Positions 1-61,870 of a stretch of 64,000 bases of DNA are shown here, in pieces. The position numbers and the translations under genes were made by a program. The stretch is from Candidatus Methanomethylophilaceae archaeon (GTDB lineage: Archaea > Thermoplasmatota > Thermoplasmata > Methanomassiliicoccales > Methanomethylophilaceae). The notes beneath the pieces were generated by a model that was not told where the DNA came from, ran no database searches, and was given only the letters and a program-made list of their open reading frames with translations. Each line of letters starts with the position of its first letter. Within the stretch, counting starts at the first letter, position 1. The stretch is from contig JBMNHS010000001.1 of assembly GCA_050950505.1 (NCBI GenBank), forward strand, positions 384,001 through 448,000, given 5' to 3'.

Positions 1-918
1 CATGCCGTCCCGGTCCGACTCGTCGCGCAGATCCGTGATGCCTTCGATATCTTTGTTTCTGACACGGTCGGCGATGCGTTCGATAAGAACGGCTTTGTTG
101 ACCTGATACGGCAACTCGTCGACGACGATGCGGGATTTCCCGTTTTCCATCTCTTCTATGTGAGTTTTGGCCCTGACTCTGAGCCGTCCCCTTCCGGTTC
201 TGTAGGCTTCCCTTATTCCGGACAGGCCGTGAATCACACCGCCGGTGGGGAAGTCGGGGCCGGTGACGATTTCGTTGAGATCGTCGTTGGTGGCTTCCGG
301 GTTGTCTATGAAGTAAATGATTGCGTTACATACTTCCGTGAGATTGTGGGGGGCCATCTTTGTGGCCATTCCCACTGCGATTCCGTCGGAACCGTTGACC
401 AGAAGGTTGGGGAACTTCGACGGCAGAACCGAGGGCTCTTTCAAAGAACCGTCATAGTTGTCGACGAAATCCACGGTTTCCTTATCGATGTCCGCAAGCA
501 TGTCCGCGGAGAGTTTGGCGAGTTTCGCTTCGGTGTAACGCATCGCGGCGGCGGGATCCCCGTCCATGGAACCGAAGTTTCCCTGACCGTCCACCAAAGG
601 ATATCTCAGTGAGAAGTCCTGTGCCATCCTTACCATCGAATCATAAGCGGAGGTGTCTCCGTGAGGATGGTATTTGGCCAACACTTCACCCACCACTTTG
701 GCGGATTTGCTGTATGAACGGTTGTGGTGCATGCCCATGTCGTGCATGGCGTAGAGTATCTTGCGGTGAACGGGTTTGAATCCGTCACGGGCGTCGGGAA
801 GGGCACGTCCGACGATGACGCTCATCGAATAATCGATGTAGGAGCGTTTCATCTCTTTTTCAATCGTCTGGTTCAATATTTTTCCGTCTGCCGTTTCTTC
901 AATGTAATTCTCAGTCAT
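1..918 (-). CDS. gyrA: DNA gyrase subunit A (5' part; runs off the window start)
   Basis: Manual translation from ATG at 918: MTENYIEE...[28 protein letters not shown]...KYHPHGD...[18 protein letters not shown] (catalytic Tyr motif). Starts 4 nt after the gyrB stop. Absent from the ORF track because it is truncated. Confidence 0.97.
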
Positions 919-922
919 GTTA

Positions 923-2839
<1,917 letters not shown>

Positions 2840-2883
2840 TCATCTGATTCCGATGCTCACTATGCTTCCCTATGCATCACCCC

Positions 2884-2918
2884 TATATATACACGCGTGT
2901 AGCGCGCACGCGCGCGCG
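2884..2918. promoter_or_regulatory. gyrBA TATA box and adjoining alternating purine-pyrimidine tract
   Basis: TATATATA at 2884-2891, about 57 nt upstream of the gyrB ATG, followed on + by CACGCGTGTA GCGCGCACGCGCGCGCG. Lies in the divergent gyrB/thiC intergenic region. Confidence 0.6.
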
Positions 2919-2987
2919 AGAAAACCCATTTTTCCGGCGTCGGGAACAGTAAAATAAAGATAGACGGATTTGCGGGACGGGTATTCT

Positions 2988-4280
2988 ATGAGCACCATAA
3001 TGGAACAGGCGCGCAGAGGCGGTTGCAAAGAGCTCGTGCGCAAAATTGCCGAAAAGGAAAGGGTCAGTGAAGAGTTCGTCCGAAACGGGATAGCATCGGG
3101 ACGCATCGTCGTTCCCCTCAATCCCGTGCACAATCCGGAACCCTGCGCCATCGGAGAAGGCCTCAGCGTCAAGGTCAACGTGAATCTGGGCACTTCGAGG
3201 GACATCGCCGACATCGATGCAGAATTGGAAAAGTTGGAAGTTTCCCTGAAATACGGTGCCGATTCCGTTATGGATCTCAGCACCGGCGGGGACATAGACA
3301 CCATCAGAACCCGTTTGCTGAAAGAATGCCCCGTGATCATGGGTTCCGTGCCCATCTATCAGACCGGTCTCACGGCGGCGAGAAACAACGCCGTCGTGGA
3401 CATGAGCGAGGACGATATTTTCAACGGAATCGAAAAACACGCGAAAGACGGAATGGACTTCATGACCGTTCACTGCGGCATTACCAAAGAGTCCGTGAAA
3501 TGGCTTAAACGGGCCGACAGACTGATGGACGTGGTTTCCAGAGGCGGTTCCTTCCTTACCGCTTGGATTCTCCACAACGAAGAAGAGAACCCGCTTTACA
3601 GGAATTACGATTATCTTTTGGAAATGGCCCGGAAGCATGAATTCACCCTTTCCCTGGGCGACGGGTTCAGACCCGGCTGCATTTCGGATGCCACCGACCA
3701 GGCTCAGATATCAGAACTTATGACACTGGGTCATCTTGTAAAAAGGGCAAGGGAAGCCGGCGTTCAATCCATGGTGGAGGGACCGGGACACGTTCCCCTC
3801 GGACAGGTTCCCATGAACGTCGAACTTGAAAAACGACTGTGCGACGGCGCTCCGTTTTATGTCCTGGGGCCTTTGGTCACGGACATTGCGCCGGGATACG
3901 ACCATCTGGTGGGAGCGATCGGCGGAGCCGTCGCCGCCCAGGCGGGAGCAGATTTCCTTTGTTATCTTACCCCGGCGGAACATCTGTCCCTTCCCGACGC
4001 CGATGACGTGCGGGAAGGAGTGATCGCGTCAAAGATTGCGGCGCATATCGGAGATCTCGCAAGAGGAAAAGACCGTGAAATGGACGATGCCATGGCAAAG
4101 GCCCGCAAGAGATTGGATTGGGACACCATGTTCGAAGTCTGCTTGGATCCCGACAAGGCCCGGGAATATCGGGCAAGAGGGTGCACAGAGCACGAAGACG
4201 GCTGTTCGATGTGCGGGGATGTCTGCGCGGTCAAGATTGTCAACAAATATCTGACCAAAAACACCGACCTAATCAAATGA
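2988..4280 (+). CDS. thiC: Phosphomethylpyrimidine synthase ThiC (ThiC/BzaAB/BzaF family radical SAM enzyme)
   Basis: KVNVNLGTS, MDLSTGG, VSRGGS, SLGDGFRPG, EGPGHVP, GPLVTDIAPGYDH, TPAEHL and C-terminal CSMCGDVC Fe-S motif. Start ATG 2988 preferred over TTG 2970. Confidence 0.9.
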   Translation: MSTIMEQARRGGCKELVRKIAEKERVSEEFVRNGIASGRIVVPLNPVHNPEPCAIGEGLSVKVNVNLGTSRDIADIDAELEKLEVSLKYGADSVMDLSTGGDIDTIRTRLLKECPVIMGSVPIYQTGLTAARNNAVVDMSEDDIFNGIEKHAKDGMDFMTVHCGITKESVKWLKRADRLMDVVSRGGSFLTAWILHNEEENPLYRNYDYLLEMARKHEFTLSLGDGFRPGCISDATDQAQISELMTLGHLVKRAREAGVQSMVEGPGHVPLGQVPMNVELEKRLCDGAPFYVLGPLVTDIAPGYDHLVGAIGGAVAAQAGADFLCYLTPAEHLSLPDADDVREGVIASKIAAHIGDLARGKDREMDDAMAKARKRLDWDTMFEVCLDPDKAREYRARGCTEHEDGCSMCGDVCAVKIVNKYLTKNTDLIK

Positions 4281-60941: not shown

Positions 60942-61870
60942 AGCTGGATGTCGATTCCGAGTTTGTCGGTGAGTTCCTTGTACCTGTTTCTGATGGTAAC
61001 TTCGGTGACTCCCGCGACTTCGGCCACTTCACGCTGGGTCCTGCGTTCGTTGCACAGAATCGATGAAATGTATATCGCCGCGGCGGCAACGCCGGTGGGT
61101 CCTCTTCCGGACGTGAGTTCCTTCTCGGAAGCGTCCTTTAGAATTTCCGCGGCTTTGGTCTGAACTTCACCGCTGAGCTTAAGTTCGGAGCAGAATCTCT
61201 GCACGTAATCCTGAGGTTTGGTGGGCATAAGTTTCAGTTTGAGCTCACGGGTCATGAACCTGTATGTTCTTCCGATTTCTTTACGTCCAACGTGACTTGC
61301 GCTCGCGACTTCGTCCAAAGTTCTGGGAACCCCACATTTTCTGCAGGCGGCGTACAGCGAAGCCGCCACAACGCCTTCGATGGAACGTCCTCTGATCAGG
61401 TTCTTGTTCACGGCCTTTCTGTAAATCATGGCCGCGGTTTCCCTTACGTTTCTGGGAAGTCCCATGGCGGAAGCCATTCTGTCCAATTCGGACAACGCGA
61501 AGGCAAGGTTGCGTTCGGTGGCGTTGGACACACGGATTCTTCTTTGCCATTTCCTCAGTCTGTAAAGTTGGGCGCGGTTTCTGGTGGGGATGCTTTTACC
61601 GTAGCTGTCTTTGTTTTTCCAGGAAATTTCGGTCGAGAGACCTTTGTCGTGTATGGTGTAGGTCATCGGAGCACCGGTGCGTGCTCTCTTTTCTCCCTGT
61701 TCGACATCGAAGGCTCTCCATTCGGGGCCCTGGTCGATGAATTGGTCATCCAATATCAGGCCGCAGTCCTCACACATGAGTTCTCCGCGTTCATAGTCGC
61801 GGACGAGGTGACGGCTGCCGCATTCAGTGCACACTTCAATTTCTTCGGTGCCTTCTCTTGTTTTTGACAT
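60938..61870 (-). CDS. tfb: Transcription initiation factor IIB
   Basis: Zn ribbon [26 protein letters not shown], two cyclin repeats, [12 protein letters not shown]. Confidence 0.98.

Follow-up and report, generated by a model that had tools for sequence, protein, structure and literature searches.

Yang, Kim, Molinari and DasSarma (1996) reportedly described an alternating purine-pyrimidine "RY box" with a non-B structure at the supercoiling-sensitive bop promoter of Halobacterium; the element is said to measure about 11 bp, to lie at the TATA region or immediately downstream of it, and to be associated with stimulation by supercoiling. In bacteria, Menzel and Gellert are said to have found that transcription of gyrA and gyrB is stimulated by relaxation. 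The bacterial determinant is the -10/discriminator region of the sigma-70 promoter, which acts via open-complex formation. A role of the discriminator in relaxation-stimulated gyrase promoters is treated in PMC8422995. Archaeal gyrase is of bacterial origin according to the literature, and PMC9348778 and PMC3184054 report that novobiocin induces gyrase genes in haloarchaea, which means that relaxation-induced gyrase expression exists in archaea. Here, we analyzed a 35-nucleotide (nt) alternating tract at the promoter of the gyrase operon gyrBA, which has thiC as its divergent neighbor, in a 64,000-nt stretch of the genome of a Candidatus Methanomethylophilaceae archaeon (assembly GCA_050950505.1, contig JBMNHS010000001.1, positions 384,001 to 448,000; hereafter, the window).

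The position of this tract at the putative gyrBA TATA box, its uniqueness in the genome, and its conservation as a property were observed directly. We tentatively favor, with a little less than even confidence, the interpretation that selection maintains the tract as a non-B (Z-DNA) element within the gyrBA core promoter, where it would lower gyrase transcription when the DNA is over-supercoiled. What appears to be conserved is alternation of the CG/CA type, that is, the capacity to leave the B form.

The alternating tract and its conservation

A first-pass annotation of the window had described 35 nt of nearly unbroken alternation, including a palindrome, that begins at the gyrBA TATA box and covers the place of the transcription factor B recognition element (BRE). 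The sequence bore out this description. Positions 2884-2918 consist of two strict pyrimidine/purine runs, one of 18 nt (TATATATACACGCGTGTA, 2884-2901) and one of 17 nt (GCGCGCACGCGCGCGCG, 2902-2918), joined via a single purine-purine slip (A2901-G2902) that shifts the phase between them, and TACACGCGTGTA (2890-2901) is a perfect 12-bp palindrome within the tract. Its parts are as follows:

2884..2891, minus strand: putative gyrBA TATA box TATATATA, also the first 8 nt of the 18-nt run, 64 nt upstream of the gyrB ATG
2892..2901, no strand assigned: proximal alternating block CACGCGTGTA, part of the palindrome TACACGCGTGTA, over the BRE position (about 2892-2898)
2902..2918, no strand assigned: distal block GCGCGCACGCGCGCGCG, alternating and GC-rich, with its phase opposite to that of the proximal block

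The tract both abuts and includes the TATATATA box, so that an alternating stretch lies within a TATA-type archaeal core promoter. It belongs to the CG/CA class of alternating tracts, with both runs above the SIBZ minimum of 8 bp and 16 of the 17 nt of the distal block being G or C. Reading along the gyrB strand, one meets the distal GC block and then the proximal block, followed by TATATATA, GGGG, and CATAGGGAAG; a small hairpin, GGAG, and the ATG come last. Positions 2892-2898 adjoin TATATATA directly upstream on this strand, where a BRE is expected; the location given by the annotation was therefore correct, with the box itself putative. In public RNA data, 4 runs were found, all of them assembled contigs, and none covers 2688-3057. 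The published BRE consensus is purine/A-rich. At gyrB, the corresponding sequence reads CACGCGTG, which is not purine/A-rich and did not match this consensus, and the 30 nt upstream are 77% G+C, compared with 35-45% G+C and a weak A preference in the AT-rich upstream DNA of 80 TATA-anchored promoters of the genome, which indicates that promoters of this genome do not generally carry such a tract. The tract is probably not transcribed because it lies upstream of both putative TATA boxes, those of gyrB and thiC.

As the annotation had noted, nothing comparable occurs elsewhere in the window, where the longest other strict run is 14 nt. Across the whole genome (assembly G000; 1,326,829 bases, or 1.33 Mb, in 2 contigs), 10 runs of at least 17 nt were found versus about 3 expected from the genome alternation frequency. 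With 33 of its 34 steps alternating, the tract outranks all other 35-nt windows of the genome; none of them reaches 33, the next best being an AT-only tract (31 steps) and a CA repeat (30 steps). A Z-Hunt-like Z-DNA energy scan of the genome, using dinucleotide energies that were checked against Table 1 of PMC3024258, placed GCGCGCACGCGCGCGC first, with the least negative critical superhelical density, and the other top sites were mostly short and intragenic. The genome-wide Z ranking suggested in the first-pass annotation thus put the gyrB tract at the top. No comparable tract was present in the upstream regions of topA and topoisomerase VI of this genome, and the topA upstream regions of relatives and of this genome (29 readable; 1 of 30 loci was cut at a contig end) contained no long tract and reached 17-25 of 30 alternating steps. 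Avoidance of CGCG and GCGC in the genome was unremarkable (observed/expected 0.82 and 0.79, respectively).

For the comparative analysis, gyrB was searched in 40 relatives and then in 150 family genomes, with a match in 147 of 151 genomes including this one. Upstream DNA was taken for gyrB matches that included the N-terminus, giving 24 loci from the first search and 115 regions from the second. Excluded were 3 loci that were short or cut and 8 genomes with N-terminally cut matches or with none among the matches listed, so that 136 family genomes, each with 120 nt or more upstream of gyrB, remained. Alternation was scored as the best 31-nt window (30 steps) within 200 nt upstream of the gene. 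At least 25 of 30 steps alternated in 122 of these 136 genomes, at least 26 in 108, and at least 28 in 72. When the 1125 called genes of this genome were used as a null set, only 9 reached at least 25 of 30, and two of these were gyrB and thiC. By Z-propensity, 127 of the 136 genomes lay above the 99th percentile of the same null.

Broken down by genus, the tract was found in every sampled genome of g1 (15/15), g2 (1/1), g3 (15/15), g4 (8/8), g7 (2/2), g9 (3/3), g21 (7/7), g22 (6/6), g24 (38/38), and g26 (1/1), in part of those of g6 (9/11), g8 (16/20), and g23 (1/2), and in none of those of g10 (0/1), g19 (0/1), g20 (0/1), g25 (0/1), and g27 (0/3). Most tract-negative genomes in g6, g8, and g23 keep a CG block of 10-16 nt beside the TATA box. 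The tract therefore occupies the same place in 13 of the 18 genera sampled, at gyrB identities down to 65%. The expectation that alternation would be conserved despite changes of letter held for the 122 family genomes named above and failed in five genera of the family and in 6 loci from three other families of the order. In g10, g19, g20, and g27, gyrB is the most divergent (61-63% identity), and these genera share an AT-rich, near-palindromic promoter word, TTAGTATTTATACTAA; the 6 loci of the other families have related AT-rich promoter elements, with a word that differs from TTAGTATTTATACTAA.

Outside this set, 76 loci with a full 400-nt flank were scored in a wider sample. Three of them, titled Methanomethylophilaceae or Methanogranum, scored 28, 27, and 24; among the other 73, from bacteria and other archaea, one scored 24 and the rest at most 22. 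The possibility that equally long GC-type tracts are common at random loci was also considered. They were not: 5 complete genomes from 5 other genera have strict runs of at least 20 nt at only 2-3 places each, and the gyrB upstream region was among them in all 5. The remaining runs of this length adjoin unrelated genes, namely a STAND-like NTPase, a VapE-like gene, and MatE/MetRS.

To compare letters with property, 119 distinct tract-bearing sequences were aligned on the TATA box. The A/T 8-mer of the box was the most conserved element, with 0.8-1.2 bit at seven of its eight positions, and information upstream of it was 0.2-0.66 bit per position. The strongest upstream signal was (CG)3 at -1 to -6, in phase with the TATA box and present in about 60-68% of the sequences, and positions -1 to -3 were 87-90% G+C. 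Block lengths, the number of phase slips, and A/T-containing interruptions vary between and within genera; locus L002, for instance, has an unbroken 34-nt tract, and L007 a short one in two blocks. Among tract bearers, the longest strict run measures anywhere between 10 and 48 nt, the spacers between blocks read AT, TACA, TACATA, TAACATAAT, or AAATTATTA, and CG is often swapped for CA/TG with alternation kept. Within the tract (-26 to -1), 829 of 1009 mixed steps between A/T and G/C alternated (82%, versus 50% and 52% in the flanks), as did 1542 of 1598 steps between G/C and G/C (96%, versus 59% and 43%), although the independence of these counts is overstated, since the loci were selected by alternation (yet make up 90% of all loci) and the genomes are related to one another. 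When each genus was represented by a single sequence, mixed steps alternated in 100 of 126 cases. These step data support selection on alternation itself.

Predicted B-Z transition and competing explanations

The behavior of the tract under torsional stress was calculated using a single-run equilibrium model of the surrounding 5-kb domain with published B-Z energies (Table 1 of PMC3024258), in which melting, proteins, and ions are ignored. The distal block (2902-2918) was predicted to flip between a superhelical density (sigma) of -0.035, with a probability of 0.32, and -0.04, with a probability of 0.93, and no other site in the 5 kb had a predicted probability above 0.05. The calculated Z region reached position 2889 at sigma -0.055 and position 2885 at -0.06, which places it over the BRE position and into the TATA box.

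These predictions suggest a sequence of events that we infer for the B-Z transition in vivo, its effect on TFB and TBP, and the sign of regulation. On relaxed DNA, the tract would be ordinary B-DNA and the strong TATA box would fire. Strong negative supercoiling between gyrBA and its divergent neighbor would turn the distal GC block into Z-DNA first, and rising stress would then extend the Z form across the proximal block until it reached the BRE position and the TATA-box edge. The distal block alone could take up about 3 turns at moderate stress, and the whole flip about 3-6 superhelical turns. High stress, expected transiently between divergent units, would place a B-Z junction at the TFB/TBP site, and gyrase transcription would drop. 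Both effects would reduce gyrase transcription when the DNA is over-supercoiled, which is the sign required for homeostasis, and gyrase would thereby come under homeostatic control without a regulator protein.

A fuller proposal is possible but more speculative. In most Methanomethylophilaceae, the gyrase operon may carry a protein-free, two-stage B-Z gauge, fused in phase to the TATA box, that would buffer moderate negative supercoiling and block TFB/TBP when it is high; in the lineages sampled, it would occur only where gyrBA has a close divergent neighbor (thiC, or feoAB at one locus), and it would have replaced an older AT-rich palindromic promoter. The opposite sign has also been considered in the literature: in PMC11293857, it is proposed that promoter Z-DNA is captured by archaeal TFE, which would aid re-initiation and thus have an activating role. 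Such a role via TFE is also conceivable at gyrB.

Several results weigh against the homeostatic Z-DNA interpretation. In the model, moderate supercoiling (sigma about -0.04) flips only the distal block, and the BRE/TATA side needs about -0.055 to -0.06. This exceeds the average unconstrained level usually quoted for bacteria, so that a flip over the BRE and TATA box would need transcription-driven supercoiling. Phase slips, which carry an energetic cost in Z-DNA, are common, with one in this genome and two opposite-phase blocks in many relatives. Some relatives have blocks of 10-16 nt only, and the longest strict run is just 10-15 nt in 21 of the 122 tract bearers. The absence of the tract from five genera of the family and from the loci of the other families also counts against it, as does the limited independence of the step counts. 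Across 17 nearest-neighbor pairs, the ratio of transitions to transversions was 29:20 in the tract and 105:122 in the flanks, a difference that was not significant (p = 0.12). Finally, the tract differs between close pairs at 0.11 differences per site, like the core promoter, compared with 0.48 further upstream. This slow change indicates that the tract is under constraint, but a protein site would look alike, and from aligned sequences the rate alone cannot separate structure from protein site.

We weighed the reading, which we consider rather unlikely, that a sequence-specific protein binds CG-repeat B-DNA beside the TATA box, either as a repressor or activator of gyrBA or through an unusual, strong contact of the single TFB, with alternation as a by-product of CGCG words. 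The tract overlies the BRE/TATA region, where archaeal repressor operators usually lie; its slow, core-promoter-like change among close relatives and the frequent (CG)3 next to the TATA box would suit a bound protein, and CG repeats are self-complementary, as dimer sites are. However, the information per position is low, block lengths (10-48 nt) and spacers vary freely in a manner unsuited to a dimer of fixed geometry, and replacement of CG by CA/TG is common while alternation stays. Moreover, neither a second tract locus nor a comparable promoter site was found in the genome, which leaves such a protein without a regulon. The organism has a single TFB gene, alongside topoisomerase VI, and an alternative TFB with its own BRE was rejected on this ground.

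Somewhat less probable still is a structural element that works without a B-Z flip, in which a stiff GC block would orient the symmetric TATATATA, stop upstream melting or antisense initiation, exclude chromatin proteins, or insulate gyrBA from its neighbor. Since TATATATA is palindromic, it needs an upstream asymmetry for direction; the tract always lies upstream of the box, between two divergent promoters, and the three positions adjoining the box are 87-90% G+C. Nevertheless, G+C needs no alternation, yet nearly all G/C-G/C steps and most mixed steps alternate at the frequencies given above, and such a block is missing from the genome's other divergent promoter pairs.

Cruciform extrusion of the palindromic parts under negative supercoiling, rather than Z-DNA, as the active form appears improbable. 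Although TACACGCGTGTA is perfectly palindromic over its 12 bp and the GC block comes close to self-complementarity, the stems would be only 4-6 bp, and the folding energy of -10.1 kcal/mol against a mean of -7.6 kcal/mol in dinucleotide-preserving shuffles (z -1.34) was equaled or bettered by 18 of 200 shuffles. According to PMC11293857, CG-type alternation is the classic Z former and AT-type alternation is the likelier to extrude as a hairpin. A neutral CG/CA microsatellite produced by slippage is very improbable: two-base length differences between close relatives (pair L063/L161) resemble slippage and the genome has long CA and TA repeats at other places, but the tract keeps its position next to the gyrB TATA box in 13 of the 18 sampled genera, with gyrB down to 65% identical, while DNA further upstream has diverged by 0.48 differences per site in close pairs.

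A possible protein partner of Z-DNA was also examined. The best Pfam match of a 58-amino-acid (aa) winged-helix protein (G000:C1:966486-966659, minus strand; locus L185, 1465-1641) was z-alpha, at 23.4 bits (cut-off 21), and 14 control genomes gave no z-alpha match. The wing tryptophan and the helix-3 KKEI are present, and the Z-DNA-contact asparagine and tyrosine are absent, judged by the human Z-alpha motif. The protein turned up in 8 of 41 related genomes, 2 of them from family f7, for which no gyrB upstream sequence entered the comparison; it went undetected in 13 of the genus's 15 other genomes, all of them tract-bearing. As a required partner of the tract it was rejected, its distribution being unrelated to that of the tract.

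Flanking genes, promoter elements, and other alternating tracts

The genes and promoter elements around the tract are as follows:

1..987, minus strand: 5' part of gyrA, cut by the window edge, directly downstream of gyrB (Pfam DNA_topoisoIV, E 1e-117)
923..2827, minus strand: gyrB, 634 aa (Pfam HATPase_c, DNA_gyraseB, Toprim, and DNA_gyraseB_C)
2841..2855, minus strand: small hairpin in the presumed gyrB 5' leader (CAUC, 7-nt loop, GAUG), directly 5' of GGAG at 2836-2839
2865..2874, minus strand: conserved element CATAGGGAAG, 10-19 nt downstream of the TATA box
2950..2959, plus strand: putative thiC TATA box TAAAATAAAG, tentatively assigned, about 30-38 nt upstream of the ATG
2988..4280, plus strand: thiC, 430 aa, the divergent neighbor (Pfam ThiC_Rad_SAM, E 1e-191)

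On the comparative evidence, the tract is assigned to gyrB and not to the neighboring gene because it always touches the gyrB TATA box, its distance to the neighbor gene ranges from about 120 to 260 nt, and it persists in loci without a nearby thiC. Of the 122 tract-bearing loci, 90 have a divergent thiC no more than 300 nt away, and in 32 it was undetected; at L016 it is merely more distant, and at L022 the neighbor is feoAB and the tract is retained. Among tract-less promoters, no thiC was found within 300 nt in the 6 genomes of g10, g19, g20, and g27 or in the 6 loci of other families. The tract and the close divergent neighbor may have arisen together; this joint appearance was probably one evolutionary event and is therefore not a statistical argument.

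The element CATAGGGAAG recurs as CATAGGGA, CATAGG, or CATAC at most loci of the genus as well as in other genera, and in this genome it is echoed as GCATAG 5 nt further on. It is probably a promoter-proximal or initiator region just upstream of the start site. The leader hairpin has 4 bp in this genome and up to 7 bp in relatives (loci L001-L015), and RNAalifold gave a 7-bp consensus stem for 13 distinct sequences of the genus. Two of its pairs change on both sides (C-G/U-A and A-U/U-A/G-C/C-G), and the hairpin may govern gyrase translation or mRNA stability. A search of 2500-3300 on either strand against Rfam, including the thiamine pyrophosphate riboswitch, returned no match at E-values up to 10, and an RNA element at the tract was rejected on this basis. 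On the thiC side, a T/A-rich element at the TAAAATAAAG position is conserved in relatives that retain thiC. Given the short distance between this putative box and the ATG, the thiC mRNA would be leaderless or nearly so.

The tract-less loci (L024 and L165-L169 within the family, L025-L030 in other families) have a conserved leader of about 110-130 nt after the AT-rich promoter, with GGATGGATGGGAG-like words. Together, this promoter and leader look like a separate, older gyrase control region in the order.

The only TFB gene of the genome lies within the window, at 60965-61513 on the minus strand, with two TFIIB cyclin repeats in one 331-aa frame.

Other alternating tracts were recorded in this genome and in a relative. 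Short intergenic CG tracts of the genome flank genes for a flavin adenine dinucleotide-linked oxidase, pyrroline-5-carboxylate reductase, and an NADH-oxidoreductase 20-kDa-type subunit. A DEAD/DEAH-box helicase gene (C1:60731-62293) is preceded, at a distance of about 65 nt, by a 25-nt alternating repeat of the CA type (G000:C1:60643-60667); it is the genome's second long alternating tract that contains GC and occupies a promoter-like position. At G000:C1:480539-480563, a 25-nt AT-type alternating tract lies immediately upstream of a DDE transposase-like open reading frame (C1:480572-481321). In a relative (L182, G095:C1:702092-702115), a 24-nt CG-type tract is located between a TATA-like box and the start of a methionyl-tRNA synthetase gene; it lies downstream of the box, unlike the arrangement at gyrB.

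Comparison with known systems

Clear natural functions of Z-DNA in prokaryotes are lacking. The supercoiling balance of archaea with an acquired bacterial gyrase is presented as an open question in PMC9348778. In this setting, the tract offers a concrete, short, conserved element with natural variants in more than 100 genomes that differ in length and in the presence or absence of slips, and tract-less lineages serve as built-in controls. If the homeostatic Z-DNA interpretation is true, the tract would be a regulator that works through DNA shape alone and is sited on the enzyme that sets DNA shape.

Like the bop RY box, the gyrB tract is an alternating stretch at the core promoter of an archaeal TATA-type promoter. 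It differs from the bop element in being 27-35 bp long and GC-rich, in lying upstream of the TATA box at the place of the BRE, in its association with gyrase genes, and in its conservation across the family, and the expected sign is repression. With bacterial gyrA and gyrB, the locus shares the proposed logic, in which more gyrase expression on relaxed DNA closes a homeostatic loop. Unlike the bacterial promoters, it has an archaeal TBP/TFB promoter, with a Z-prone tract ahead of the TATA box as the candidate determinant.

The tract also resembles eukaryotic flipons and engineered (CG)n plasmid inserts in its CG/CA alternation and in its proposed driver, negative supercoiling (PMC3024258 and PMC11293857). 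Flipons lie near eukaryotic start sites, with negative supercoiling arising especially behind and between transcribing polymerases, and the energetics given in PMC3024258, when applied to the gyrB tract, predict onset near sigma -0.04. In contrast to the gyrB tract, natural, conserved, and gene-specific Z-forming examples are scarce in prokaryotes. A survey of Z-prone sequences in 827 archaeal genomes reported bulk enrichment only, with gyrase and topoisomerase unmentioned (preprint 10.64898/2025.12.30.697008), and no description of a Z-prone tract at an archaeal gyrase promoter was found in the full-text literature searched. For promoter data on Methanomassiliicoccales, the 10 top-ranked records contained nothing relevant. 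Precedents for the individual parts exist in the bop promoter, eukaryotic flipons, and engineered CG inserts, and bacterial homeostatic control of gyrase is textbook knowledge; what is new is their combination, a natural, family-conserved tract fused to the TATA box of an archaeal gyrase operon.

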